Positions 2,051 to 55,619 of a DNA stretch of 64,000 nucleotides are shown here, piece by piece. The stretch covers positions 48,687-112,686 of the forward strand of contig CANQBW010000001.1 in the NCBI GenBank assembly GCA_947589565.1, written 5' to 3'. The position numbers were made by a program, and so were the translations under genes. The notes beneath the pieces are model-generated. The model was not told where the DNA came from, ran no database searches, and was given only the letters and a program-made list of their open reading frames with translations. The stretch comes from an uncultured Clostridia bacterium (lineage in GTDB: Bacteria > Bacillota > Clostridia > Christensenellales > Borkfalkiaceae). The stretch's first letter is position 1. Every line of letters starts with the position of its first letter.

Positions 2051-2221
2051 TCAATTTTCCTCCTTTTCCCCTTCCTCCGCCCCCTCTTCGATCATTTCGT
2101 CAAATCCTTTCAGCGCGGCAAAGGGCGCAAACTGCGCCGCCCGCTCGGCGCGGGGCATTCGGGGATGATTCTTCGGCTCATAGTGCGGAAGATTTAAGAT
2201 GTCGTCGTAATTCTTTTCCAT
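2051..2221 (-). CDS. small protein coupled to the Y-family polymerase (possibly YolD-like)
   Basis: A 56-aa ORF below the track cutoff, found by hand: MEKNYDDILNLPHYEPKNHPRMPRAERAAQFAPFAALKGFDEMIEEGAEEGEKEEN. Its ATG shares one base with the polymerase TAA (TAATG). The RAAQFAPFAAL motif resembles small partners of Firmicute Y-family polymerases; this assignment is from memory and tentative. Confidence 0.5.
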   Translation of the reverse strand: MEKNYDDILNLPHYEPKNHPRMPRAERAAQFAPFAALKGFDEMIEEGAEEGEKEEN

Positions 2222-3690
2222 TATTTTTTATGCCCCCCGATCGTATTGTTCCGCTCGATCGCCGTCGCCCCCTCCTCGAGGTCGAGCCCCTTGACAAGAG
2301 AGTTTTTTCCGAACTTCTCTTGAATTTTGAGAACCGTCTCCTGAAGCGCCTGCTCCTTTTGCTCCTTGGCGCTCTCCTTGGGGGAGAGAGAGGTAAAGAT
2401 GTCGAGCTGCCTCGGCGCATTTTCGCCGCGCAGCCTGCAATAGGTGAGGTTGAGTCTTCTCACGGTCAGATCGGGAGAGACGATTTTTTTGTAGAGCTCG
2501 GCTGCGGCTTTTGTGAGTTTTGCAGAGAGCGAAGTGTACTCCCCCACATGTGCGGTGCCGTGCGCATGTTTGGGAATCTCCCTGCCGTATCGGTCGAAGA
2601 CGACCTCTCCCGTGTATTTTTTTCTTCTTGCGGGGTCCTTGAGATTTTCTCGGTCATATCCCACCGTGAGGACGATCTGATCGGTCATAAGTCCCTTCTT
2701 TTCGAGGTCGAGGGCGAGCGAAGTCGCCATTTCTTTTAAGACAAGCAGCCCTTTTTCAAAGGAGTACGGCTCGGAGAGGACCTGTCCCGAGGCGAGCGAA
2801 GTCTCCCGCGGGCGGTATGCCTTGATCTCTGCGATCGTGCAGGGCTCCCACCCCCAGGCGTGGTCGATGAGAAGTTCCGCATTCACCCCGAAGAGGGAAT
2901 AGAGCAGATCTTCGTTTCTCAAAGAACAGCGGGCGACGTCCCCCATGGTCGTCATGCCGCGGGAGAGAAGACGCTTCTGATACCCCTTCCCCACCCGCCA
3001 GAAGTCGGTGATCGGCTCATGCGCCCAGAGGGTCTTTCGATAGGAAAATTCGTCAAGTTCTGCAATGCGTACGCCGTTTTCGTCGGCGGGCACATGTTTT
3101 GCGACGATATCCATCGCCACCTTTGCAAGATAGAGGTTGGGACCGATCCCCGCCGTCGCCGTGATCCCCGTCTTTTGGAAGACCTCGAGTATGATCTTCA
3201 TGGCAAGCTCTTTCGGGGAAATTTTATAGAGGTTGAGATATGCGGTGACGTCAAAGAAGACTTCGTCGATCGAATAGATATGCATGTCCTCGGGCGCGAC
3301 AAACTGACGGTAGATGTCCACGATCTTGGAGGAATATTCAAGGTAGAACGCCATTCTCGGCGGCGCAGCGATGAAATCGAGCTCGAGCGAAGGGTCCTTC
3401 TCCAACTTTTCAAAAATATAGGACTTTCCCGAAAATTTTCCCCCGGGCGCACGGCGGCGGCGAGCGGAATTGATCTCCTTGACCTTCTCCAGAACCTCGA
3501 AGAGGCGGGGTCTTCCGGGGATCCCATACGCCTTGAGGGCGGGAGAGACGGCGAGGCAGATCGTCTTTTCGGTGCGCGACTCGTCCGCGACGACAAGATT
3601 GACCTTTAAAGGGTCAAGCCCCCGTTCGACGCATTCGACGGAGGCATAAAAGGATTTTAAATCGATTGCAAGATAAACTTTGTCCATCAA
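2221..3690 (-). CDS. Y-family DNA polymerase (UmuC/ImpB/DinB superfamily, UvrX/YqjW-like)
   Basis: 489-aa ORF. The N-terminal YLAIDLKSFYASVE is the Y-family catalytic motif (compare DMDAFYASVE in DinB). Length is typical for the family. Confidence 0.85.
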   Translation of the reverse strand: MMDKVYLAIDLKSFYASVECVERGLDPLKVNLVVADESRTEKTICLAVSPALKAYGIPGRPRLFEVLEKVKEINSARRRRAPGGKFSGKSYIFEKLEKDPSLELDFIAAPPRMAFYLEYSSKIVDIYRQFVAPEDMHIYSIDEVFFDVTAYLNLYKISPKELAMKIILEVFQKTGITATAGIGPNLYLAKVAMDIVAKHVPADENGVRIAELDEFSYRKTLWAHEPITDFWRVGKGYQKRLLSRGMTTMGDVARCSLRNEDLLYSLFGVNAELLIDHAWGWEPCTIAEIKAYRPRETSLASGQVLSEPYSFEKGLLVLKEMATSLALDLEKKGLMTDQIVLTVGYDRENLKDPARRKKYTGEVVFDRYGREIPKHAHGTAHVGEYTSLSAKLTKAAAELYKKIVSPDLTVRRLNLTYCRLRGENAPRQLDIFTSLSPKESAKEQKEQALQETVLKIQEKFGKNSLVKGLDLEEGATAIERNNTIGGHKK

Positions 3691-19013: not shown

Positions 19014-21362
19014 ATGAAAAAATCTATCAAAATTCTTTTGATCGCGCTCGGCGTGCCGCTTTTGATCTTGATTGGGGCTGTCATCTTTTACTGTTCGGTG
19101 ACGGCGGGCGTCAAGCTCGATTTGAGCAAGCTCACATTGAACCAAACCACCGTCGAAATTTTCGATCGCCACGGCGATCCCGTCGAAAAGGAGAGCGCGG
19201 GAGAGATCGTCCCCTTCGACGAACTCCCCAAGTCCGCTCCCCTCGCCTTTGTCGCCGTCGAGGACAAACGGTTTTACGAGCACAACGGTCTCGACTATAA
19301 GCGCATTGCAAAGGCAGCCCTCATCAACCTGAAGAGTTTCTCCTTCCGCGAGGGAGCCTCGACCATCTCCCAGCAGCTCATCAAAAACACCCATCTCTCC
19401 AACGAAAAGACCCTCACGCGGAAGCTCAAGGAAATGAAACTCACCCGTCAGATGGAGAAGACGCTCTCAAAGGACGAAATTTTAGAGCTCTATCTCAACA
19501 CGATCTACTTCGGGCACAGCGCCTTCGGCATTGAAAATGCGGCAAACTTCTACTTCGGACACAGTGCAAGAGAACTTCTTCCCGCGGAGAGCGCGACGCT
19601 CGCCGCCCTCGTCAAATCCCCCAACCGCTATTCCCCCTTCCAGGATCCCGAAAAATGCCTCTCCCGCAGAAATTTTGTCTTGAAGCTCATGAAGGAGCAG
19701 CAAATTCTCTCCGAGGAAGAGTACAAAACGGCAAAACAAGTCCCCCTTCCCACGGAGCCGACCCTCTCGAAAAAGAGGAGCTTTTATCTGACCTACGTCT
19801 TTGAGGAGCTCTCCGAAATTTTCCCCGACTTTCGATCGGGCGATTCGCTGCGCGTCTACACCTATCTCGACAAAAATTTGCAGGAAACGCTCGAACGGGA
19901 GGAGACGACAAGCGACGTCATTCGCCTTGTGCGGGGAAATGCGGACAACTCCATCAAGGCGATCCATTCGACCTGCGGGATCCCCAAGCGGCTGCCCGCC
20001 TCCACCATCAAGCCGCTCGCAGTCTACGCGCCCGCGATCGAGGAAGACCTGCTCTCCCCCGCGACTCCCATTCTCGACGAGAAAATTTCCTTCTCGGACT
20101 ACTCCCCCAAAAATTACTCGGGAAACTACGAGGGCTACATGAGCGCACGCTACGCCCTCTCGCGGAGCGTCAATGTGCCCGCCGTGAAAGTTTTAAATTC
20201 TCTCGGGATCGACAAGGCGGCAAAATATCTCGAAAAGATGGGACTTTCGATTCCGGAAGAGGACAAGACGCTCGCCCTCGCCCTCGGCGGCATGAAAGAA
20301 GGGTTCTCCCTTCCCGCCCTCGCGGACGCCTATTCGGTCTTTGCAAGGGAGGGAGCATTCTCCTCCTCTTCGACGATCGCGAAAGTGGAAAACAAGGCGG
20401 GCGAACTTCTCTATGACAGAAGGACGCTCTCTGCCACCAAAAACGGAGAGGGCGAAAACAAAGTTTTTTCGGAAGAGACCTGCGTTCTCATCAACGACAT
20501 GCTCAAGACCGCAGCAAAGGAGGGAACGGCGAGAAAGCTCAAAAGTCTCCCCTTTTCGGTGTGCGCCAAGACGGGCACGGCGGGAAACGATCGCGGAAAC
20601 ACCGACGCTTACACGATCGCCTACACCTATGAGGACGTCGTCGCCGTCTGGCTGGGAAACAGGGACAATTCCCCCATTCAAGAGACAGGCGGGGGTGCGG
20701 CGGCAAATGAGACGCTCCGCATTTTAAAGGCGCTCTATAAAGAGCATTCGCCCGAGGAATTTCCCGCTTCGGAGAATGTCGTCACCGTCGCCTTAGACCG
20801 CGAGGAATATGAGGAAAATCATCGGCTGCTCGTCATGGACCCGACCGCGCCCGACTATCTTGCCCTGCATGAGCTCTTCAAAAAGTCGGCGATCCCCGAG
20901 GGCACGAGCACCAAGTTCCATGCGCCGAAAATACAAAAACCGCTCATTTCTGTGAAAAATGGAGCGGTTGAGATAATACTATGTCAGACATATTACTATG
21001 ATTACGAGGTAAAAAGAGAAAGTGAAGGTCAAATTTCCGTCATTTACAGGGGAAGTTACCGAAAAAACATCGTAGATAACTCCGTGCAGGGCGGAAAGCG
21101 CTACACCTATACGATCACCCCCTTCTATCAGGGGATCGAGGGCGAGAGCATCACACTCCCCTCCGTCTTTGTCGAAAGCAAAGAGGAACTTCCCGACGAT
21201 TGGTGGGAAACTTACAATTTGAACTCCTCTTTGGATTTCAATGCTTCTTCGATCAATTCCTTTACAGGGAGCTTATTCTCCTCTTCTTCCACAAAGCGAA
21301 GGTTCGGCTTGATCGCGGGAAAGTCGGGCAGAAAGACCGTGCAGCAGTCCTCAAACGGCTGA
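19014..21362 (+). CDS. class A penicillin-binding protein (glycosyltransferase + transpeptidase)
   Basis: The track ORF starts at TTG 19011; ATG 19014 gives MKKSIKILL. GT51 motifs EDKRFYEHNG and GASTISQQ. Transpeptidase motifs STIKP, SRS.N and KTGT. The last ~50 codons overlap thiI on the opposite strand. Confidence 0.9.
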   Translation: MKKSIKILLIALGVPLLILIGAVIFYCSVTAGVKLDLSKLTLNQTTVEIFDRHGDPVEKESAGEIVPFDELPKSAPLAFVAVEDKRFYEHNGLDYKRIAKAALINLKSFSFREGASTISQQLIKNTHLSNEKTLTRKLKEMKLTRQMEKTLSKDEILELYLNTIYFGHSAFGIENAANFYFGHSARELLPAESATLAALVKSPNRYSPFQDPEKCLSRRNFVLKLMKEQQILSEEEYKTAKQVPLPTEPTLSKKRSFYLTYVFEELSEIFPDFRSGDSLRVYTYLDKNLQETLEREETTSDVIRLVRGNADNSIKAIHSTCGIPKRLPASTIKPLAVYAPAIEEDLLSPATPILDEKISFSDYSPKNYSGNYEGYMSARYALSRSVNVPAVKVLNSLGIDKAAKYLEKMGLSIPEEDKTLALALGGMKEGFSLPALADAYSVFAREGAFSSSSTIAKVENKAGELLYDRRTLSATKNGEGENKVFSEETCVLINDMLKTAAKEGTARKLKSLPFSVCAKTGTAGNDRGNTDAYTIAYTYEDVVAVWLGNRDNSPIQETGGGAAANETLRILKALYKEHSPEEFPASENVVTVALDREEYEENHRLLVMDPTAPDYLALHELFKKSAIPEGTSTKFHAPKIQKPLISVKNGAVEIILCQTYYYDYEVKRESEGQISVIYRGSYRKNIVDNSVQGGKRYTYTITPFYQGIEGESITLPSVFVESKEELPDDWWETYNLNSSLDFNASSINSFTGSLFSSSSTKRRFGLIAGKSGRKTVQQSSNG
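20966..20995. promoter_or_regulatory. 30-bp palindrome-containing element, copy E (inside the PBP gene)
   Basis: Plus strand reads GGTTGAGATAATACTATGTCAGACATATTA. It has the perfect TATGTCAGACATA core. The flanks are themselves partly symmetric (ATAATAC / GTATTAT-like), so orientation is ambiguous. Confidence 0.4.
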
Positions 21363-22363
21363 ATGGACGTCTCGTAGGAGCCGATCTTTTTGGAGAGCTC
21401 GATGATCTCATCCTTGTCGAATCCGATGAGCGGACGAAGGACGGGAAGGGTTACGACCGCATTCGACGAGGTGATCCCCTCGATCGTCTGGCTTGCGACC
21501 TGTCCCAAACTCTCCCCCGTTATGAGGCAGTTTGCGCACGTTTCCTTTGCGACGATCTCGGCGATGCGGAACATGAATCTCCTTAAAAGCGTTACATTGA
21601 GTTCCTTTGCGCAGGTCTTATGAATTTCTTCCTGAATGTGGGCGACGTTGACCGTGATGAGGCTCTCCGAGAGGGAGTATCCCGACAGAATTTTGCTCAA
21701 CGTCTTGACCTTTTCCTTCGCGCCGTCGTTGGTGTAAGGGTAGCTGTGGAAGTGCAAAAGTTTTACGCCCATGCCGCGCTTTGCCATCATGTAGCCCGCG
21801 ACGGGAGAGTCGATCCCCCCCGAAATGAGAAGGAGCCCCTTCCCGGAAGTTCCGACGGGCATTCCGCCCGCCCCCTTTTCGTAGGAGCCGAAGACGAGCG
21901 CGGTGCCGTTTTCGCGGATATCGAGATACACTGTGTGTTCGGGGGTGTGAACGTCCACTTTCAAAGAGGGAAAATCGTGCAGCAGTCTTCCCCCGATCGC
22001 AGCGCTCAGCTCCATGCTCGTCATGGGGTATTTTTTATCGGCGCGATGGGTGTCCACCTTGAAAGTGCCGTCTTGTGGTGCAAACAGCTTTGCCGCCGCA
22101 TAAATTTCGTCGAGAGAATTTCCGACGACCAGCCCCCGCGAATAGGAATGAATGCCGAACACCCGTTTAAGGCGGGACATAATTTCCTCTTCCAACTCCT
22201 CGGGATAGCCTGCAAGCAGATATCTGCCGCTCGTGCGGTGCAGTTCATGGCGAATGCCGCGCATCGCACGCTCCAAATTGACCATAAAAATTCGCTCGAA
22301 GAAGCCGCGGTTCTTTCCCTTCAGATGAATTTCAGAATATCGAATGATGATGACTCTCTCCAT
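21212..22363 (-). CDS. thiI: tRNA 4-thiouridine synthase ThiI (no rhodanese domain)
   Basis: Start set to ATG 22363 (MERVIIIRYSEIHLKGKNR), which shares one base with the nifS TGA. PP-loop motif LLISGGIDSPVA. Confidence 0.9.
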   Translation of the reverse strand: MERVIIIRYSEIHLKGKNRGFFERIFMVNLERAMRGIRHELHRTSGRYLLAGYPEELEEEIMSRLKRVFGIHSYSRGLVVGNSLDEIYAAAKLFAPQDGTFKVDTHRADKKYPMTSMELSAAIGGRLLHDFPSLKVDVHTPEHTVYLDIRENGTALVFGSYEKGAGGMPVGTSGKGLLLISGGIDSPVAGYMMAKRGMGVKLLHFHSYPYTNDGAKEKVKTLSKILSGYSLSESLITVNVAHIQEEIHKTCAKELNVTLLRRFMFRIAEIVAKETCANCLITGESLGQVASQTIEGITSSNAVVTLPVLRPLIGFDKDEIIELSKKIGSYETSIQPFEDCCTVFLPDFPAIKPNLRFVEEEENKLPVKELIEEALKSKEEFKL

Positions 22364-23469
22364 CAGAGTTTCTCCTTCCACTCCCGTGCGCACGCATTCA
22401 ATGCGTCTGCCGCGGTCAAAATTTCCTTCTCCGTGATCTCGGGGAAAAAGCTCATGCGAAGGACGCCGTCAAGTACGTCCTCGGGATACCCGCACGCCTT
22501 TAAAATGCGGCTGTGGGGGTGCTTTGAGGAACACGCGCTCCCCGTTCCGACGATGACGCCGTTTAAATCAAGCATTCTCTGTAAAACTTCCCCCCTCATG
22601 CCCCGCGCCGAGACCGTCAAAATATACGGCGAGCCCGCTTCCGTCGAAATGCGGGTGAAAATTTCCGGGTCGAGGGAGGAAAAGAGCAATTCCCGAAGTT
22701 TTAAAAACTTCTCCGCGCGCACTTTCAGATCCTTCAGCTCCTGCGCCGCATAGAAAAAGCACAAAATTCCGAGTACATTCTCGGTGCCGCTCCTGAGATT
22801 CCCCTCCTGTCCGCCGCCGAACAGGTAGCTTTGCGGAAGGGTCCCCTTGCGAAAGAGCAGCGCCCCCGTCCCCTTGATCCCGCCGATCTTGTGGGCGCTG
22901 ACGGAATAGAGGTCGATCTCCTTTCCGAGCCGAACCGGGATCTTTCCGAACGCCTGAACGCCGTCGCTGTGAAATTTGCAGCGCGGATTTTTGCGCTTGA
23001 CCGCCTTGGCGAGAGCATTGATGTCGTTGACCGCCCCCGTCTCGCTGTTGACATGGACGACGGAGACGAGGGAAGTCTTCTCATCCACCAGGGAGAGAAG
23101 CTCCTCTTCCGTCACGCTTCCGTCCTTTTCCACCCTTGCAAATCTCGGCTCCACGCCGAAATCCTTACATTTTTTAAAACAATTCTCCACGGCGGGGTGC
23201 TCCCCCATCGTTGTGACGGCGTTTCCGCGCCGCGCAAAGGAGAAGATCGCCTGATTGTCCGCCTCGGTGCCCCCCGAGGTGAAGAGGAGCGAGAACTCGG
23301 GAAATAACTCCGTGAAAAATTCCCGCGCCCGCTCGATCTCTCTTCGAACATTCACCGCCTCCGCGTACTGCGCGGAGGGATTGAAATAGTTTTCGGCATA
23401 GAACTTCTCCGCCCGCTCAAGCGCTTCTTTCACGGGCGCAGTCGTTGCCGCATTGTCAAGATAGATCAT
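22363..23469 (-). CDS. nifS: cysteine desulfurase (NifS/IscS class V aminotransferase)
   Basis: MIYLDNAATT, SAHKIGGIKGTG (PLP lysine), and GSACSS (active-site Cys loop). Confidence 0.9.
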   Translation of the reverse strand: MIYLDNAATTAPVKEALERAEKFYAENYFNPSAQYAEAVNVRREIERAREFFTELFPEFSLLFTSGGTEADNQAIFSFARRGNAVTTMGEHPAVENCFKKCKDFGVEPRFARVEKDGSVTEEELLSLVDEKTSLVSVVHVNSETGAVNDINALAKAVKRKNPRCKFHSDGVQAFGKIPVRLGKEIDLYSVSAHKIGGIKGTGALLFRKGTLPQSYLFGGGQEGNLRSGTENVLGILCFFYAAQELKDLKVRAEKFLKLRELLFSSLDPEIFTRISTEAGSPYILTVSARGMRGEVLQRMLDLNGVIVGTGSACSSKHPHSRILKACGYPEDVLDGVLRMSFFPEITEKEILTAADALNACAREWKEKL

Positions 23470-26400
23470 TAAAATTCCACTCTGCCTTCATAGACCTTCT
23501 GCACGGCGCCCTCGAGGATAACTCTGCCGTCCGAGGTGTAGCGCACGATGAGGTCGCCCCCCTTGACTTTGACGGTGACGTCGACGTCCCGTTTGCAGAG
23601 CCCCTTCTCGACGCAAGCGACGACTGCCGCCGCCGCGCCCGTTCCGCAGGCATAGGTCTCCCCCGTGCCCCGCTCGAAGGCGCGCATCTTGATCGTCGCC
23701 TCGTTGACAAGACGAATGAAGACGACGCTCGCCTCGTGCGGGAAGTATTTGCTCGAACCGATCTTGGTGCCGAGCTCCTCGACGTCGACGTCCTCCACCC
23801 TGTCGCAGAACATGACGCAGTGGGGCGTTCCGACGCGGACGGGGGTGACGAGGTAGGTGACTTCGTCGATCGTGATGGGAAGATCGAAGTTTCTGTCCCC
23901 CTTGGGAAGTTTCTCAAAGCCGAGAACGGGCGCACCGAGGTCCGCGCTCGCGGATGCGACCGCGCCGCCGAACCGATAGACGCGCACCTCGCGAATGCCG
24001 CCGATCGTCTCGATCTTCATCGCCTCCTTCTTGACTCTTCCCGTCTCATAGAGGTACTTTGCGACGCAGCGCACGGCGTTTCCGACCATGTCGCTCTCCA
24101 TGCCGTCGTGGTCGAAGATGCGCATCCGCGCGTCCGCCTGTTCGGACTTCTCGATGAGGACGATCCCGTCCCCGCCGATCCCATAATGACGGTTTGCAAA
24201 GTTGACCGCGAGGGACTCGGGGCAGGTGATCTCCCCGTTTCCGTCCTCAAACAGGATATAGTCGTTCCCGCAGGACTGCATCTTGACGAAGGAGAGCTGC
24301 AATTTATGCTTGCGGAGACGGTTGATGTCCACGAGCTCGGTGTTGTACTGGGTGAATTTGCTCGCGATGATGTCGCAGAGGGCGTTTGCCGTATCGAGAG
24401 AAGTCAAAACGGTCACGCCGAGCAGCACCGCATGATGATGCAATTCGATATAGTCGTTGATGGAGTCGACGTCCGTCTTTCCCGTGTAGATGATGTAGTC
24501 GATCTTGCCTTGGTCCATGAGCTCGGAGACCTGCTTGGTCGCCTTGAGCCGCTCGACGACCGTGACGTCGATGCCGAGCGCGGAGATCACCTTCGCGGTG
24601 CCCGCCGTCGCATACAGATTGCAGCCGAGGTCGGAGAACTTCTTCGCGATCGAGACGATCTCGAACTTATCCTGGTCGTTGACGGTGAAATACACGCCGA
24701 CGGGGTGCTGTTTGGTCGGATGGCACATCTTGAATCCCGCCGAGACAAGTCCCTTGAAGAGGGCCTCCTCGATCGTCTTGCCGATGCCGAGGACCTCCCC
24801 CGTCGACTTCATCTCGGGGCCGAGTTGGGAGTTGACGTCGTTGAGCTTTTCGAAGCTGAAGACGGGCACCTTGACGGCGACATAGGGAGAATCGGGATAC
24901 AGCCCCGTGCCGTAGCCGAGTCTCTTGAGCTTTGCGCCCGCCATGATCCTGGTCGCAAGCTCCACCATCGGCACCCCCGTGACCTTGGAAATGTAGGGGA
25001 TCGTCCGCGAAGCGCGGGGATTTACCTCAATGACGTACAATTCATTGTGATAAATGAGATATTGAATGTTGATGAGCCCCTTCGTCTTGAGCTCGAGCGC
25101 GAGCTGCGTCGAGACTTCGACGATGCGCTCCTTCATCGCGTCGCTCAAGTGATAAGGCGGGTATACTGCGATGGAGTCCCCCGAGTGGACGCCCGCCCGC
25201 TCCACATGCTGCATGATGCCGGGGATCAGAACGTCCACGCCGTCCGAAATGGCGTCGACTTCGAGCTCCGTGCCCATCAGATACTTGTCGCAGAGGACTG
25301 GATTTTCAATGTGCTGCGACAAAATCACGTCCATATAGCGGGAGATGTCGTTCTCGGTGAAGGCGATCGTCATGTTCTGCCCGCCGATGACATAGGAGGG
25401 CCGCAGAAGGACGGGATAGCCGAGCTTTTCGGCGGCCTCGAAGGCCTGTTCCTTGGTCATGACCGTGAGCCCCTTGGGACGGGCGATGTGATACTGCTCC
25501 AAAAGTTCGTCGAACCGCTCCCTGTCCTCGGCGATGTCGACGCTGTCCGCGCTCGTTCCCAAAATGCGGACTCCCTTCTTGGCAAGGTACCCGCAGAGCT
25601 TGATCGCGGTCTGCCCGCCGAAGGTGATGACGACGCCGTAGGGCTTCTCCACGTCGATGACGTTCTGCACGTCCTCGGGAGTCAAGGACTCGAAGTACAG
25701 CCTGTCCGCCGTATCGAAGTCGGTGGAGACCGTCTCGGGATTGTTGTTGATGATGATGACCTCATAACCGAGGGATTTGAGGGTCCACACGCAGTGGACG
25801 GAGGAATAGTCGAACTCGATGCCCTGTCCGATGCGGATGGGACCGGAGCCGATGACGATGACCCTCTTTTTCTGCGATTTTTTCACGAAGGAGACCGCCT
25901 CGTCGTGCTCCAAGGGGTCGTAGGTCGAATAGAAATAGGGCGTCTGCGCCGAGAACTCGGCGGCGCAGGTGTCGACCATCTTGAAACATGCCCTGCGATG
26001 GGTGACTTTGTTCCCCGTGAGCATCTCGAGGGCAAAGTCGGTGTAGCCGAGCTTCTTCGCCGCAAGATACTCCGCGCGGGTGAGCTTCTTTCCCTTGATA
26101 CTCTGCTCGAAATCCACCAAATTTTTGAGCTTATTTAAAAACCAGCGGTCGATCTTCGTGATGTGGAAAATCTCGTCGGGCGTGATCCCCGCATGAAGAG
26201 CGGCGAAGACGACAAAGAGCCGCTCGTCCGTCATCTTTTCAAGTTCTTGATAGAGCTCCTCTTTGGTGAGCTTGGAGAATTTGGGCGCGTTGAGGGTGGA
26301 CAGAGAAATTTCCGCGCCGCGGACCGCCTTCATGATCGCCTGCTCGAAGGAGGAGCCGATCGCCATGACCTCGCCCGTCGCCTTCATGCGCGAGCCCAAG

Positions 26401-27512
26401 TCCCGCTTCGCATACAAGAATTTATCGAAGGGCCACTTGGGGAGTTTGACGACGACATAGTCGAGCGCGGGCTCGAGGCAGGCGTAGGTCTTGCCCGTGA
26501 CGTCGTTTCTGATCTCGTCGAGGGTATAGCCGAGCGCGATCTTGGTCGCGACCTTTGCGATGGGATAGCCCGTCGCCTTGCTCGCAAGCGCGGAGGAGCG
26601 CGACACGCGCGGATTGACTTCGATGACGGCGTACTCGAAACTGTCGGGATTCAAAGCAAACTGGCAGTTGCATCCCCCCTCGATGCCGAGCTCCGAAATG
26701 ATGTTGATGGAGGCGGTGCGGAGCATCTGATACTCCTTGTCCGAGAGCGTCACGGCGGGCGCGATGACGATGGAATCCCCCGTGTGAATGCCGACGGGGT
26801 CGAAGTTCTCCATGGAACAGACGGTGATAACGTTCCCCGCGCTGTCCCTGATCACTTCGAACTCGATCTCCTTCCATCCGCCGATGTATTTTTCGATGAG
26901 GACCTGCGTGATCGGGGAGAGCATGAGCCCGTTGTGGGCGATGAGACGAAGCTCCTCCTCCGTCCGCGCGACACCCCCTCCCGCGCCGCCCAAGGTAAAG
27001 GCGGGACGCACGATGACGGGATAGCCGAGGCTCTCTGCGATCTTGACGCAGTCCTCTACATGATATGCAATGTCCGAGGGAACGACGGGCTGACCGATCT
27101 TCTTCATCGTCTCCTTGAAGAGTTCCCGGTCCTCGGCACGGTCGATGGCGTCGAGGTTGGCGCCGATGAGTTTGACCCCCCACTCGTCCAAAAATCCGCT
27201 CTTTGCGAGCGTACAGCCCATGGTAAGGCCCGTCTGTCCGCCCAAGGAGGCGAGAAGGGAATCGGGCCTCTCCTTGATGATCACCCGCTTTAAGGAATCC
27301 TCCGTCAGAGGTTCCAAATAAATTTCATCTGCGAGCATTCTGTCCGTCATGATGGTGGCGGGATTGCTGTTGCAGAGCACGACGTTGACCCCCGCGTCCT
27401 TCAGAACGCGGCACGCCTGTGCGCCCGCATAGTCGAACTCGGCGGCTTGTCCGATCACGATGGGACCGGAGCCGATCACCAATACCTTTTTGATCTCACT
27501 TTTCTTGGGCAT
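23469..27512 (-). CDS. carB: carbamoyl-phosphate synthase large subunit fused in frame to diaminopimelate epimerase
   Basis: A single 1347-codon ORF. Residues 1 to about 1070 are canonical CarB: two ATP-grasp halves and an MGS-like tail ending VLTSLDTANAL...INRLRK. The last ~277 aa are DapF: FVKMQSCGNDYI, GNAVRC and ETYACGTGAAAA, with both catalytic Cys present. Confidence 0.85.
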   Translation of the reverse strand: MPKKSEIKKVLVIGSGPIVIGQAAEFDYAGAQACRVLKDAGVNVVLCNSNPATIMTDRMLADEIYLEPLTEDSLKRVIIKERPDSLLASLGGQTGLTMGCTLAKSGFLDEWGVKLIGANLDAIDRAEDRELFKETMKKIGQPVVPSDIAYHVEDCVKIAESLGYPVIVRPAFTLGGAGGGVARTEEELRLIAHNGLMLSPITQVLIEKYIGGWKEIEFEVIRDSAGNVITVCSMENFDPVGIHTGDSIVIAPAVTLSDKEYQMLRTASINIISELGIEGGCNCQFALNPDSFEYAVIEVNPRVSRSSALASKATGYPIAKVATKIALGYTLDEIRNDVTGKTYACLEPALDYVVVKLPKWPFDKFLYAKRDLGSRMKATGEVMAIGSSFEQAIMKAVRGAEISLSTLNAPKFSKLTKEELYQELEKMTDERLFVVFAALHAGITPDEIFHITKIDRWFLNKLKNLVDFEQSIKGKKLTRAEYLAAKKLGYTDFALEMLTGNKVTHRRACFKMVDTCAAEFSAQTPYFYSTYDPLEHDEAVSFVKKSQKKRVIVIGSGPIRIGQGIEFDYSSVHCVWTLKSLGYEVIIINNNPETVSTDFDTADRLYFESLTPEDVQNVIDVEKPYGVVITFGGQTAIKLCGYLAKKGVRILGTSADSVDIAEDRERFDELLEQYHIARPKGLTVMTKEQAFEAAEKLGYPVLLRPSYVIGGQNMTIAFTENDISRYMDVILSQHIENPVLCDKYLMGTELEVDAISDGVDVLIPGIMQHVERAGVHSGDSIAVYPPYHLSDAMKERIVEVSTQLALELKTKGLINIQYLIYHNELYVIEVNPRASRTIPYISKVTGVPMVELATRIMAGAKLKRLGYGTGLYPDSPYVAVKVPVFSFEKLNDVNSQLGPEMKSTGEVLGIGKTIEEALFKGLVSAGFKMCHPTKQHPVGVYFTVNDQDKFEIVSIAKKFSDLGCNLYATAGTAKVISALGIDVTVVERLKATKQVSELMDQGKIDYIIYTGKTDVDSINDYIELHHHAVLLGVTVLTSLDTANALCDIIASKFTQYNTELVDINRLRKHKLQLSFVKMQSCGNDYILFEDGNGEITCPESLAVNFANRHYGIGGDGIVLIEKSEQADARMRIFDHDGMESDMVGNAVRCVAKYLYETGRVKKEAMKIETIGGIREVRVYRFGGAVASASADLGAPVLGFEKLPKGDRNFDLPITIDEVTYLVTPVRVGTPHCVMFCDRVEDVDVEELGTKIGSSKYFPHEASVVFIRLVNEATIKMRAFERGTGETYACGTGAAAAVVACVEKGLCKRDVDVTVKVKGGDLIVRYTSDGRVILEGAVQKVYEGRVEF
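23472..24302 (-). other. dapF: DapF (diaminopimelate epimerase) domain portion of the carB ORF
   Basis: The junction reads ...NRLRKHK|LQLSFVKMQSCGNDYILF at about 24300-24311. There is no stop, and no SD precedes the internal Met codon at 24281. Confidence 0.8.
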
Positions 27513-28578
27513 TTTGTTTCTCCTTTTTCATGCGTGAAAGAAACCCGTCGAAGAGGTAGTTTGCGTCGTGCGGACCGCCGCAGGCTTCGGGATGGAACTG
27601 TACGGTCTCCGCATCGAGGTCGGGATAGCTCATCCCCTCGCAGGTCCCGTCGTTGGCGTTGACGAAGGTCTCTCTTCCGCAAGAGACCGTCTCCGACAGC
27701 ACTTCATAGCCGTGGTTCTGGCTCGTGACGAACACCTTTCCGCTTGCAAGCTCCTTGACGGGCTGGTTGGCGCCGCGGTGTCCGTACTTCATCTTTCGCG
27801 TCTTTCCGCCCATCGCGAGGGCGAAGAGCTGATGCCCGAGGCAGATGCCGAAGATCGGCTTTTTGCCCGCAAGTTCTCTGATGATTTTGATCTCCGCTTC
27901 ATCGTCTGCGGGATCTCCGGGACCGTTCGTCAGCATGATGCCGTCGGGATGAAGGGCAAGCGCCTGTTCCGCAGGATACTCCGCGGGCACGACCGCGACC
28001 TTGCAGCCGCGGCGGACAAGTTCCCGCACAATGTTCTCCTTTGCGCCGTAGTCATAGAGGACGACAAAGTACTCCCCGCCCTCATTGAGAATGTGAACAT
28101 TCTTACAGGTGACAGCCTGCAGTGCCCCGCTCACCCGATATCTTTTCAGCGCGTCGAAATCGGTGAAGGGGCGGAAGGAGATCGCCGCATTCATGACGCC
28201 GTGTTCGCGGACGATCTTCGTAAGCTCCCGCGTGTCCACGCCGTAGATCGCGGGAATATTACTTTTCTTTAAAAAATCCTCAATGGTTCCCTCCGAGCGG
28301 AAGTTCGAGGGAGCCTCACAGCGCTCCCGCACGACATAGCCGAAGACATGGCTCCTGTCCCCCTCCTTGTCGGGCGTCACCCCGTAGTTTCCGATGAGCG
28401 GAAAGGTCTGCGTGACGATCTGTCCATAGTAGCTCGGATCGGTGAGCGTCTCGAGGTAGCCGGTCATGCCCGTCGTAAAGACGAGTTCGCCGATGGTTTC
28501 GCGCTCCGCGCCGAAGGATATGCCCTCGAACACCCTTCCGTCTTCCAGCGTGAGATAAGCCTTTTTTTTCATTTTCAT
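27496..28578 (-). CDS. carA: carbamoyl-phosphate synthase small (glutaminase) subunit
   Basis: TGMTGYLETLTDPSY, ICLGHQL (catalytic Cys), and HRGANQPV. The start could be ATG 28578 or 28572. Overlaps the carB start by 17 nt. Confidence 0.92.
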   Translation of the reverse strand: MKMKKKAYLTLEDGRVFEGISFGAERETIGELVFTTGMTGYLETLTDPSYYGQIVTQTFPLIGNYGVTPDKEGDRSHVFGYVVRERCEAPSNFRSEGTIEDFLKKSNIPAIYGVDTRELTKIVREHGVMNAAISFRPFTDFDALKRYRVSGALQAVTCKNVHILNEGGEYFVVLYDYGAKENIVRELVRRGCKVAVVPAEYPAEQALALHPDGIMLTNGPGDPADDEAEIKIIRELAGKKPIFGICLGHQLFALAMGGKTRKMKYGHRGANQPVKELASGKVFVTSQNHGYEVLSETVSCGRETFVNANDGTCEGMSYPDLDAETVQFHPEACGGPHDANYLFDGFLSRMKKEKQNAQEK

Positions 28579-52698: not shown

Positions 52699-54471
52699 TT
52701 ATTTCTTCTTCCCGATAAGCTTCTTCACGAAGTCGGGAAGCTTCTGGTCGGGCATGTCGATGTCGGCGTCGTCGTCCTCTGCTTCCGCATGGGGAGCGGG
52801 AGGATTGTTCTTATAGGGATCGTATCCGGGCACAGACTCCTGCCGGGAATAGTTGTACTCCTGCTGCGGCTGCTGCTGGGGATATCCCTGCTGAGGCTGC
52901 TGCGGATAATTCTGCGGCTGCTGTTGAGGATATTGCGCCTGCCGGGGATAATTCTGACCCTGCGGATATCCCTGCTGCGGCTGCTGGTAGCCCTGCCCCT
53001 GCTGTTGAGGATAGCCCTGCGTGCGGGGGTCATAGTAGCCCTGCTGGGGCGCACCACGCTGCACCGAGCTTGCGGGGGGCATATCCGAGAAATTCTTCTG
53101 CGGCTGCGCGGGCTGACGGTAGCGGTCCGCGGGCGGGTTCTGCGGAAGACCGTCCTGACGGTACTGCGTCGGCGGGTTCTGTCTCGGCTGTCCATAGGGA
53201 TCCGCGGGATTTTGCCTCGGCTGCGCGTAAGGATCCGCGGGCGGATTCTGGCGATACTGTCCGTCCGGACGGTAGTCTGCGGGCGGATTCTGGCGGGGCG
53301 GCTGCCCATAGGGATCAACAGGCGGATTCTGGCGGGGCGGCTGCGGCGCAAAGGGACTGCGCGAAGTCGTCTGCTGCTGATTGGAGACCTGGTTGAGGTT
53401 GTAGGCAGGCTGGCGGGAAATTCTCGCCCCCTTCTGAAGTTCGGGATGGATGCCCGAGGAAGGGAATCCCGTCGCGATGACCGTCACTTCCACTTCGTCG
53501 CGGATATTTTCGTCGATACATGCGCCGAAGATGATGTTCGCGGAGTAGTCGACGACACTGTGAATGAGGTTTGCGGCAAGGCGGACCTCGTCAAAGGTGA
53601 GGTCATTCCCGCCGACGATGTTTAAAATGACGCCCGTCGCGCCCTCGATGGTCGTCTCGAGCAAGGGGCAGCTGACCGCGAGGCGGACTGCCTCGATGAT
53701 CCTGTTCTCCCCCTTTGCGACGCCGACGCCCATGTGCGCAAGTCCCCTGTCCTTGAGGACGGCTTTGACGTCCGCAAAGTCGAGGTTGATGAGCGCGGGC
53801 GTGACGATGAGGTCCGCGATCCCGCGGATGCCCTGCTTCAAGACTTCATCAGCGACGCGGAGAGCCTCCTGCATCGGTGCGTTCTTGGGAACGACGTCGC
53901 CGATCTTTTCGTTGGGAATGATGATGAGGGTATCGACATATTTTTTGAGGTTGTCGAGCCCCTTTGCGGTGTTGTCCATGCGGTGCTTTCCCTCGAAGGA
54001 GAAGGGCTCCGTGACGACCGCGACCGTCAGAATTTTGAGGTCCTTGGCGATCTTGGCGATGACGGGAGCCGCGCCCGTTCCGGTGCCGCCTCCCATGCCC
54101 GCCGTGATGAAGAGAAGATCGGTGTTTTCGACCGCCTTGACGAGGACGTCCTTGTCCTCCTCCGCAGCCATGCGCCCGATCTCGGGATCCGCGCCCGCGC
54201 CGAGTCCCTTGGTGAGCTTTGCGCCGATCTGGATCTTCGTCTCCGCCTTGTTGCAGGCGAGGATCTGCGCGTCGGTATTCACGGCGACGTATTTCGCGCT
54301 CGTGATTCCCGCATCGATCATGCGGTTGACGGCGTTGTTGCCCGCGCCGCCCACGCCGATGACCTTGATCCGCGCCTTGCCGTTGAGCTCGGGCTCCTGA
54401 TGGGTGTCCGCAGGGCGATCGTTCGGAATATTTTCTCTCCCCCACATGGAAGAATTGTTGTCGTTATACAT
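52699..54471 (-). CDS. ftsZ: cell division protein FtsZ with an unusually long repetitive C-terminal linker
   Basis: GVGGAGNNAVNRM and GMGGGTGTGAAPVIA. The globular core ends near residue 345. A P/Q/Y/G-rich stretch of about 225 aa follows, then the conserved C-terminal peptide DIDMPDQKLPDFVKKL. Confidence 0.95.
   Translation of the reverse strand: MYNDNNSSMWGRENIPNDRPADTHQEPELNGKARIKVIGVGGAGNNAVNRMIDAGITSAKYVAVNTDAQILACNKAETKIQIGAKLTKGLGAGADPEIGRMAAEEDKDVLVKAVENTDLLFITAGMGGGTGTGAAPVIAKIAKDLKILTVAVVTEPFSFEGKHRMDNTAKGLDNLKKYVDTLIIIPNEKIGDVVPKNAPMQEALRVADEVLKQGIRGIADLIVTPALINLDFADVKAVLKDRGLAHMGVGVAKGENRIIEAVRLAVSCPLLETTIEGATGVILNIVGGNDLTFDEVRLAANLIHSVVDYSANIIFGACIDENIRDEVEVTVIATGFPSSGIHPELQKGARISRQPAYNLNQVSNQQQTTSRSPFAPQPPRQNPPVDPYGQPPRQNPPADYRPDGQYRQNPPADPYAQPRQNPADPYGQPRQNPPTQYRQDGLPQNPPADRYRQPAQPQKNFSDMPPASSVQRGAPQQGYYDPRTQGYPQQQGQGYQQPQQGYPQGQNYPRQAQYPQQQPQNYPQQPQQGYPQQQPQQEYNYSRQESVPGYDPYKNNPPAPHAEAEDDDADIDMPDQKLPDFVKKLIGKKK
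52762..53436 (-). repeat. low-complexity / degenerate tandem-repeat coding region (FtsZ linker)
   Basis: Repeated PRQNPPADPYGQ-like units, then QGYPQQQ-like units. At the DNA level there are reiterated GGCGGATTCTGGCGGGGCGGCTGC and CTGCTG-rich tracts. Confidence 0.8.
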
Positions 54472-54473
54472 GC

Positions 54474-55619
54474 TTAACCTCCGAATAAACTTGAAAATGC
54501 TCCTCCGCTTGCGCGGTTGTCTTTGCAGGCCATGTCGATGAGCGCAATGCGCGAACTCATGGACGGTTTATTGTAATAGGGCAGATCGGGCGCAAGTTGC
54601 TCGCAGACCGTATTCAGCCGCCTTGACATATGTTCGAGTGCGCCGCGGATGCCGTCGAGCCCCTCTCCCGTCACAAAGATGGGCTTTGAAGAGAGTTCGT
54701 CGCTCTCGCAGCTCTCCAGAAAGAGAGCGACTTGCTCGCACAGCTCGTCCAATCCCGCCTTGACCTCTTCGACGAACGCCCCGGCGGGTACCTCGTAGTA
54801 CCTCCCCTTCCATCCGACCTCACGCGCTTTCGCGTCTCTTTTGAGATACAGATTGGAGCGGGTGAGCAAGGTGACCGCAGCCTCGTAGGGAAGATGGAAC
54901 CTCTCCATGAGCCTGACCGCGATCTGACCCTGTCCCGCCCAGAAGGTGCGCTGCTGTAAGATCGCCCCTCCCATGACGATGCCGATCGTCGAAGAGAGAT
55001 ATCCCACATCGAGGAAGATCGCGCATTCGTCGCGCTGGTCGGCGGTGAGAAGATTCATCGCCATCGCGTAGTCTGTGGGAAGATATTTGAGTAAGATTTT
55101 CTGACCGCCGAACACCTGTTCCATGGCGCTCGTAAAATAATCGGAACAGTAGAAATAGGACAAAATTCCCGTCAAAGACGAGGAGTAGATGCCCACGGGA
55201 TCGACAATACGGCGGTTGTCCGAGGTAAAGAAGATGGCGCTCGAAACGCGGATGAGCCGATAGCCGTCGAGATTTTCGACGCCGCTGTCGTAAAGTGCGT
55301 CGATCTCCCGCTCCCCCAACTTTTTGCGCTTGGGGAAGGAGAGAGACTGCTCCTTCAAAACCACCCGCATGAACTCCCCGGGGACCCCGATGTAGAGCGT
55401 CTTGAAACGCTTTCCGCAGATGCGCTCCACGCCCTCGAGCGCGCGCAGGGCGGCATGAGTAAATTCTTCGATGTTGAAAAATTCGCCCTTCTGATAGCCG
55501 CCGTACGGCTCCGTCTTGCTCGCCTTGAATGCAAACGTGCTGTTTACGCCCATTTCGCCCACAAAAACGGCGACTTCCGACGACCGCACGTCCATGACCG
55601 CTACACTCTTGCCCGCCAA
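54474..55619 (-). CDS. ftsA: cell division protein FtsA-like (actin/ASKHA fold)
   Basis: TTG start 55619, 6 nt after GGAGGAG. VAVMDVRSSEVAVFVGE, IGVPGEF, IFLDVGY. Sits immediately upstream of ftsZ, and the ftsZ SD lies in its last codons. Confidence 0.75.
   Translation of the reverse strand: MAGKSVAVMDVRSSEVAVFVGEMGVNSTFAFKASKTEPYGGYQKGEFFNIEEFTHAALRALEGVERICGKRFKTLYIGVPGEFMRVVLKEQSLSFPKRKKLGEREIDALYDSGVENLDGYRLIRVSSAIFFTSDNRRIVDPVGIYSSSLTGILSYFYCSDYFTSAMEQVFGGQKILLKYLPTDYAMAMNLLTADQRDECAIFLDVGYLSSTIGIVMGGAILQQRTFWAGQGQIAVRLMERFHLPYEAAVTLLTRSNLYLKRDAKAREVGWKGRYYEVPAGAFVEEVKAGLDELCEQVALFLESCESDELSSKPIFVTGEGLDGIRGALEHMSRRLNTVCEQLAPDLPYYNKPSMSSRIALIDMACKDNRASGGAFSSLFGG

Follow-up and report, generated by a model that had tools for sequence, protein, structure and literature searches.

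What becomes of a diaminopimelate (DAP) epimerase that is joined to the end of a carbamoyl-phosphate synthase (CPS)? The question is raised by a stretch of 64,000 nucleotides from an uncultured Clostridia bacterium (contig CANQBW010000001.1 of assembly GCA_947589565.1), here called the window, in which carB, the gene for the CPS large subunit, continues in frame into a sequence derived from dapF, the DAP epimerase gene. An earlier note on this DNA had offered two answers: an accident of stop-codon loss between adjacent genes, or a real bifunctional protein. We find that the DapF-derived domain keeps its fold and is under purifying selection, and that in this genome it has most likely lost epimerase activity, since one of the two catalytic cysteines and three substrate ligands are replaced. 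We think it rather probable that the protein is an active CarB carrying a pseudo-epimerase domain, which may have been retained for a regulatory or structural role.

The fused gene and the active site of its second half

The gene is a single uninterrupted open reading frame (ORF), which we re-derived at the length of 1347 aa given by the earlier note. Its features, all on the minus strand, are as follows.

23469..27512, minus strand: carB fused in frame to the DapF-derived domain, one stop-free ORF of 1347 codons plus a TAA stop
24357..27512, minus strand: CarB moiety, residues 1-1052 (two ATP-grasp synthetase units, oligomerisation domain, allosteric domain)
24402..24662, minus strand: MGS-like allosteric domain, residues 951-1037 (PF02142, 44 bits)
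24294..24356, minus strand: residues 1053-1073, FTQYNTELVDINRLRKHKLQL, the C-terminal tail of CarB and the junction, with a conserved NTELVDIN..R motif and a fixed length
23472..24293, minus strand: residues 1074-1347, the DapF-derived domain, whose active site is degenerate (TIGR00652, Foldseek, dN/dS)
24279..24281, minus strand: Met1078, the equivalent of Met6 in E. coli DapF, conserved inside the domain and not used to start translation
24111..24113, minus strand: Asp1134 in place of Asn64, which binds the DAP distal carboxylate (alignment; role from PMC8225329)
24084..24086, minus strand: Val1143 (GTC) at the position of catalytic Cys73 (HMM alignment; ESDM-V-GNAVRC in the window)
23826..23828, minus strand: Thr1229 in place of Asn157, which binds the DAP distal carboxylate (alignment; role from PMC8225329)
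23727..23729, minus strand: Ser1262 in place of Asn190, which binds the DAP distal carboxylate (alignment; role from PMC8225329)
23646..23648, minus strand: Cys1289, the kept equivalent of catalytic Cys217 (alignment)

The CarB moiety is complete through its MGS-like domain, as the earlier note had stated. The NF003671 model covers residues 1-1052 with 1444 bits (cut-off 599), TIGR01369 scores 1404 bits (cut-off 1027), and Pfam finds two copies each of CPSase_L_D1 and CPSase_L_D2, one CPSase_L_D3 and MGS. Residues 1-1067 align end to end with E. coli CarB (b0033, 1073 aa), and the two share both ATP-grasp sites, the oligomerisation and MGS-like domains, and a carA gene adjacent upstream; unlike the E. 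coli protein, the fusion has approximately 280 extra C-terminal residues, which form the DapF-fold domain. All 16 of the ATP-site residues checked, at positions that we take to be those of the E. coli CPS structures, match the E. coli enzyme and are invariant in 60/60 sequences. The site for UMP and IMP is partly kept, with K954, T974, T977 and T1016 the same and K993R, N1015Y and T1017K changed; E892V and Y1040V are further differences from the E. coli effector site. We predict that the CarB half is a functional CPS large subunit.

The second half matches the DapF model TIGR00652 over residues 1074-1345 with 222.5 bits (cut-off 114.65). Its best match in the PDB is 2OTN (2e-53), and Foldseek gives target-normalised TM-scores of 0.82-0.89 to DapF structures at 29-37% identity. 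The domain thus has the same two-lobed fold as canonical DapF (EC 5.1.1.7; 2OTN, 1GQZ/2GKE, 4IJZ), although it is not a free protein. The model for the bifunctional DapF/glutamate racemase of the Chlamydia type, NF038284, reaches 100 bits, below its cut-off of 350. The earlier description of a full-length DapF fits the length and the fold of the domain, though not its active site.

We took E. coli DapF (from NC_000913.3) as the reference; Cys73 is the first cysteine in its AQCGNGARC segment, and Cys217 lies in QACGSGA. The position of Cys73 is occupied by Val1143, and phmmer alignments concur, pairing 'egksCgnglrc' of 2OTN and 'epemCgngirc' of 9MRO with 'esdmVgnavrc' of the window. Both catalytic cysteines had been reported as intact in the earlier note, but the GNAVRC cysteine that it cited (Cys1149) is the equivalent of the non-catalytic Cys79, and only Cys217 is kept, as Cys1289. 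Val1143 is not a single-base error, because GTC is two substitutions away from TGC. The three asparagines that hydrogen-bond the distal carboxylate of DAP, Asn64, Asn157 and Asn190 (PMC8225329), are changed to Asp, Thr and Ser, respectively. Glu208, Arg209, Asn11 and Asn75 are kept along with Cys217, and Tyr268 corresponds to Tyr1341.

Mutants of other DapF proteins indicate what such changes would mean for catalysis. The C73A/C217A variant of E. coli DapF has no detectable activity (PMC6061791), and Cys-to-Ser variants of DapF and of its homolog PddB keep less than 0.1% (PMC8225329). Because Val1143 coincides with N64D, N157T and N190S, the domain in the window is most likely no DAP epimerase.

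Fusions in related genomes

A homologue search with the C-terminal 418 aa gave 791 proteins at E<=1e-10, and among the top 120 of these nearly all have MGS and DAP_epimerase domains. A scan of GTDB species representatives gave 527 related stretches, and the best 80 loci, which were examined, all match across the junction at 61-77% identity. They are labelled as uncultured Clostridia, Christensenellaceae, Ca. Gallimonas, Borkfalkia and Scatosoma (taxon names throughout are the labels given by the sources). Upstream DNA was long enough in 58 species loci; in each of them a single frame of 1352-1447 codons, open from stop to stop, runs to the C-terminus of DapF, and all 58 share the start MPK(R/K).

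With the DapF part alone as query, further fused forms ranked at the top, including the full-length 1349-aa protein P0141 (MGI6497870.1). Its gene lies directly after carA on a 1.68 Mb contig of GCA_050950425.1, and the protein is named solely 'carbamoyl-phosphate synthase large subunit [Oscillospiraceae bacterium]'. A search with the C-terminus of P0141 gave at least 8000 matches, of which the best 120 are all fused and carry labels that include Oscillospiraceae, Ruminococcus, Syntrophomonadaceae, Treponema/Spirochaetes and Chitinivibrionia. P0141 and the other fusions with both catalytic cysteines (Cys/Cys) share the architecture, junction motif, linker length and carA-carB::dapF order with the window; they differ in keeping both cysteines and the whole pocket, the window belonging to a derived clade that lacks Cys73.

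From these comparisons we judge the fusion to be old, selectively kept and, by the source labels, widespread among anaerobic bacteria of several phyla. The architecture, of which the earlier note knew no described case, is abundant in public data. Uniformly separate carB and dapF genes in close relatives would have refuted the fusion in the terms of that note; the outcome was the opposite, relatives that are uniformly fused. Full-text literature searches gave no paper describing a CarB-DapF architecture, in agreement with the earlier note, and a paper linking CPS and DapF was not found either. Unfused neighbouring carB and dapF genes, as a precursor of the fusion, were sought and not found; the nearest standalone dapF genes sit elsewhere, two of them in the order purA-dapF-aminotransferase. 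Standalone Cys/Cys dapF genes of gut metagenomes (L085:455-3988, L090:3373-7117) show a conserved purA - dapF - class I/II aminotransferase order.

The junction itself is strongly constrained. The natural C-terminus of E. coli CarB (...EMHAQIK, from NC_000913.3) aligns to ...DINRLRK of the fusion, so that only about 2-3 linker residues precede strand 1 of DapF, as the earlier note had put it. The junction is free of gaps in the 58 loci and the window (n=59), and in 120 metagenomic proteins down to approximately 50% identity. It carries a conserved motif, NTELVDI(N/C)x(L/M)R...FxKM, with N, T, E, L, D and R invariant in the alignment of the 59. An accidental loss of a stop codon in this genome, or a sequencing error, was rejected on the same frame in 58/58 species, the gapless junction and the purifying selection on both halves.

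Separate translation of the DapF part from Met1078, whose codon starts at 24281, was rejected, in line with the earlier note. No Shine-Dalgarno (SD) sequence precedes this codon in 45/59 orthologs and only a 4-mer does in 14/59, the methionine is a conserved internal residue of DapF, and one ortholog has ATA in its place. The start of carB has an SD match of >=6 nt in 50/59 genes. No promoter-like site was found on the minus strand near Met1078.

Some database entries give the appearance of two genes, a CarB of 875-890 aa followed by an MGS+DapF protein of 445-449 aa. We rejected this arrangement, as the splits are scaffold gaps filled with N runs (L094:3941-4001, L095:3896-4001) or, in one case, an in-frame TAG (L093:4940-5001) that replaces the conserved Lys of PYxAVKVPVF. 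The split sites, in unrelated assemblies, correspond to residues ~880-901 of the fusion in the window (about 24810-24870) and lie a short way before the conserved Met901. The carB motif in which they fall, AVKVPVFSFEKL..GPEMKSTGEV, is ultra-conserved, and Met901 is where gene callers then restart. Assemblies thus seem to break at this stretch, which accounts for the many 445-449-aa proteins, artefacts in our view, and for the many entries called 'diaminopimelate epimerase, partial', which is the NCBI name of partial fusion proteins; the JGI name is 'carbamoyl-phosphate synthase large subunit'. Since automated annotation labels such fragments 'diaminopimelate epimerase', metabolic reconstructions of gut Clostridia (Christensenellaceae-like metagenome-assembled genomes and others) may wrongly credit them with DapF activity and hence with meso-DAP and lysine synthesis, and this consequence follows under whichever reading of the domain is right.

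The loss of Cys73 is not peculiar to the window. In 179 window-type fusions, position 73 is Ala (137), Gly (30), Ser (8), Thr (2), Val (1) or Met (1), and never Cys, and Cys217 is kept in 170 of them. The P0141-type group has the Cys/Cys pair in 78/120 unambiguously aligned domains, and the others have G/C, A/C, S/S, S/A and further combinations at positions 73 and 217. Overall, the pair is present in 78 of 299 sampled fused domains, compared with 121 of 129 standalone representatives, among which several of the exceptions are fusion fragments, and with 118/118 diverse standalone DapFs in a second control. Fisher's exact test of fused versus standalone domains gives about 1e-42 to 1e-51, for sequences that are not independent. 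In a combined neighbour-joining (NJ) tree, which is approximate and was built without the two catalytic columns, parsimony requires at least 14 changes at position 73. Fifteen of the 16 maximal clades lacking Cys73 are fused and one is truly standalone; the window-type sequences without Cys73 form one clade. P0241, a standalone Cys/Cys protein that falls inside a Cys-less clade of the NJ tree, was considered as a second dapF of the lineage; with a nearest relative only 55% identical, it is isolated and uninformative.

The substrate pocket, in contrast to the column background, is largely maintained: its residues are 93% conserved in the 225 fusions without Cys73, versus 68% for the background. 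In the P0141-type group N11, N157, N190, E208, R209 and T219 are kept in 119-120 of the 120 domains, even where the cysteines are absent. The whole pocket except Cys73 is intact in 50/59 members of the window's close group, including Asn64, Asn157, Asn190, Arg209 and Glu208. The pocket of the window (C73V with N64D, N157T and N190S) is more eroded than that of its relatives; the closest of these, L008 and L020, share T73, N64D and N157A/S. A distant fused subgroup is also eroded in the pocket (N11D, N190Y/F, G76P). At the position of the dimerisation residue Tyr268, Tyr is found in 143/179 and Phe in 33/179 window-type fusions (176/179 together).

Another cysteine, Cys1081 (24270-24272), lies at DapF position 9 next to the GND motif, where Cys occurs in 145/179 fusions and in all 59 members of the window's close group. 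We consider it unlikely to be a relocated catalytic thiol. Cys also occupies this position in 34/150 sampled representative DapFs, mostly standalone, is absent from 34/179 fusions, and is replaced there by L, A, I or T, as at a buried hydrophobic position. Cys1081 is probably a variant of the buried core that was inherited from the ancestor rather than a residue with a compensating role.

Both halves of the gene evolve under constraint: across 768 species pairs in which dS was unsaturated, the median dN/dS was 0.08 in CarB and 0.17 in the DapF-like part. The DapF-like domain is under purifying selection and is not decaying. In an AlphaFold2 (AF2) prediction for the C-terminal 418 aa, the mean predicted local distance difference test score (pLDDT) was 86.5 and the predicted TM-score (pTM) 0.66, with a pLDDT of 51-58 at the junction; in an 808-aa construct with the carbamate-phosphorylation domain, the junction reached 82-89 and pTM 0.79. 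As the confidence at the junction rises only with the CarB catalytic domain, the models suggest that the conserved tail packs on CarB and gives the DapF-like domain a defined placement beside the allosteric domain.

Possible roles of the DapF-derived domain

The explanation that we favor, and hold to be the probable one, is an active CarB with a DapF-derived pseudo-epimerase domain that would be kept for a regulatory (ligand-sensing) or structural role; the role is offered as a hypothesis only. An active DapF would anciently have been fused to the end of the CarB allosteric domain, and the Cys/Cys forms would be persisting descendants of that stage. The Cys73 base would then have been lost in the window's clade (gut Clostridia labelled Gallimonas, Borkfalkia or Christensenellaceae), with similar losses many times elsewhere. 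After the loss of catalysis the fold, and usually the pocket too, would have stayed under selection. The module may now sense a small amino-acid-type ligand and signal to the adjacent allosteric domain; alternatively, or in addition, it may serve CPS assembly via the DapF dimer interface.

A precedent for a DapF fold that modulates another enzyme by protein contact is the DapF-RppH complex of E. coli (PDB 6D13), in which DapF activates RppH by binding, a non-catalytic role (PMC6061791). In that case, DapF is a separate and catalytically competent protein and its partner is an RNA pyrophosphohydrolase, whereas the domain in the window is covalently joined to CarB and has lost one base.

We speculate further, and tentatively, that the domain could be a new allosteric input of CPS. 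As a former enzyme that now senses a ligand, DAP in most lineages and perhaps another amino acid in the window, it would couple the precursors of arginine and pyrimidines to the state of the lysine, cell-wall or aspartate-family pool. CPS is a textbook case of allostery, and DapF a target for antibiotics. CarB has a widespread and unremarked architecture with an extra C-terminal DapF-fold domain, whose dyad has repeatedly been lost while selection was maintained. If the domain is regulatory, CPS would have a form of control that is new, and the fusion would be a clean natural case of an enzyme becoming a sensor, and if it is a sensor, repeated loss of the cysteines from a kept pocket would be the signature of a recurrent transition from enzyme to sensor.

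Several points weigh against this explanation. The domain is still well above the curated DapF equivalog cut-off, and the retention of Cys217, Glu208 and Arg209 may leave room for single-base or altered chemistry. The sequence counts are phylogenetically non-independent, and the NJ tree is approximate. The docking of the tail on CarB is indirect, as the AF2 output came without predicted aligned errors or coordinates. Because three pocket ligands are changed in the window, a DAP sensor is less convincing here than elsewhere, and a changed ligand or a purely structural role would fit. Finally, if genomes without another dapF or ddh still make meso-DAP or lysine, the domain would have to be active.

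We consider it unlikely that the domain is a structural relic that binds no ligand, and on which the folding or oligomerisation of CarB came to depend, for instance through a DapF-type dimer tethering two CarAB units. The aromatic residue at the Tyr268 position, which in E. coli DapF belongs to a dimer interface needed for activity (PMC6061791), is conserved, as is the length of the linker; the pocket is eroded both in the window's sub-lineage and in the distant fused subgroup; and dN/dS is twice the CarB value. However, most of the close relatives retain every pocket residue but Cys73, and the near-invariance of the P0141-type pocket, also in domains without the cysteines, would not be expected of a pocket without function.

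A true bifunctional enzyme, in which the C-terminal domain would be an active LL-/meso-DAP epimerase and the working DapF of the genome, is improbable for the window. The score to TIGR00652, the DapF fold, the kept residues Cys217, Glu208, Arg209, Asn11 and Asn75 and the purifying selection would all agree with it, as would the existence of Cys/Cys relatives. A second dapF was found neither in the 64 kb window nor within ~6 kb of the fusion in 80 related loci, the remaining parts of the genomes lying outside the search. However, DapF needs a thiolate-thiol pair, and mutants without the pair are inactive or retain less than 0.1% activity (PMC6061791, PMC8225329). The window has Val in place of Cys73, none of the window-type fusions has Cys there, and N64D, N157T and N190S take away three hydrogen-bond donors to the distal carboxylate. 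Moreover, the repeated and varied losses (G/C, A/C, S/S, S/A) are almost confined to the fused context. The bifunctional protein of the earlier note is therefore plausible only for Cys/Cys relatives such as P0141, which may be genuinely bifunctional. The wall of Christensenella minuta is reported to contain LL-DAP (PMC7937921), which would make DapF less necessary for building the wall; the connection to the organism of the window is indirect. On lysine auxotrophy in Christensenellales the literature gave only indirect context.

Slightly more improbable still is a neofunctionalised enzyme that would use Cys1289 as its one base, with a remodelled distal site, for another reaction or another amino acid. 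In 3-hydroxyproline dehydratase and PhzF, both Foldseek matches of the domain, an altered catalytic pair or altered specificity residues accompany a new activity. The O-ureidoserine racemase DcsC (7VDY) is a further member of the fold with a new activity, and in the 2,4-diaminobutyrate (Dab) racemase PddB the distal-site residues are replaced (PMC8225329). Swaps of the distal Asn/Arg or of the catalytic pair can thus alter the function of this fold, and Cys217 is widely kept among the window-type fusions. These four proteins are free-standing and have a conserved alternative catalytic set, whereas position 73 of the fused domains is taken by various chemically inert residues (Ala, Gly, Val, Met), and both cysteines are missing from some lineages (S/S, S/A). 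The pattern looks like lost catalysis rather than the gain of another catalytic set that is conserved. The fused domains showed no new residue that is conserved; the Cys at position 9 also occurs among the mostly standalone DapFs.

DapF serves as a module in other fusions as well. P0202 (687 aa) joins a class I/II aminotransferase, probably DapL, to DapF, and P0238 (776 aa) joins DapF to a Mur ligase. In both, the partners are neighbours in the DAP and peptidoglycan pathway and Cys73 and Cys217 are kept, whereas no pathway connects CarB to DAP, and in the CarB fusions the dyad of the DapF module is prone to loss.

An artefact, namely a missed stop, a frameshift or a chimeric assembly joining two genes, is hardly credible: metagenome assemblies do break within carB (the N runs of L094 and L095 and the in-frame TAG of L093), but they do so ~170 codons upstream of the junction and not at it, the frame across the junction is intact in 58/58 independent species assemblies and ~240 metagenomic proteins, and GC3 is the same in the two halves of the ORF (0.82 and 0.83).

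Gene neighborhood and other observations in the window

The genes next to the fusion, all on the minus strand, are the following.

27496..28578, minus strand: carA, CPS small subunit, glutamine amidotransferase (Pfam CPSase_sm_chain and GATase)
22363..23469, minus strand: class-V aminotransferase, cysteine desulfurase-like, downstream of the fusion (ORF and family match)
21212..22393, minus strand: thiI ORF, after the desulfurase-like gene and overlapping its ORF

By the ORF coordinates, the 3' end of carA overlaps the start of carB by 17 nt, and the ATG of the desulfurase-like gene shares one base with the TAA stop of the fusion (TAATG). This tight packing of carA, carB::dapF-like, the desulfurase-like gene and thiI (21212-28578, minus strand) suggests one translationally coupled operon, which combines CPS with sulfur transfer for thiamine and 4-thiouridine. 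At other loci with called genes, carA likewise lies immediately upstream of the fused gene; the genes flanking the fusion vary among other lineages and include argJ, OTCase, purF/purC and gerA.

Opposite carB lie two antisense ORFs, 23445-26138 (plus strand, 897 aa) and 26163-27293 (plus strand, 376 aa). Neither is likely to be a real gene; GC3 in the gene opposite is 82%, and both are most likely its shadow ORFs.

The remainder of the window is ordinary core chromosome, in which no arg, pyr or DAP genes were found. The FtsZ ORF (52699-54471, minus strand) encodes 590 aa, of which TIGR00065 covers residues 29-347 only, leaving an unusually long C-terminal extension of ~240 aa. Upstream of ftsZ, an ftsA-like ORF (54474-55619) scores 50 bits against an FtsA cut-off of 176. 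The ORF at 2221-3690 (minus strand, 489 aa) gives a partial match to DNA polymerase IV over residues ~105-343 (170 bits against a cut-off of 381), and its ~100 N-terminal residues have no match to DNA polymerase IV models.

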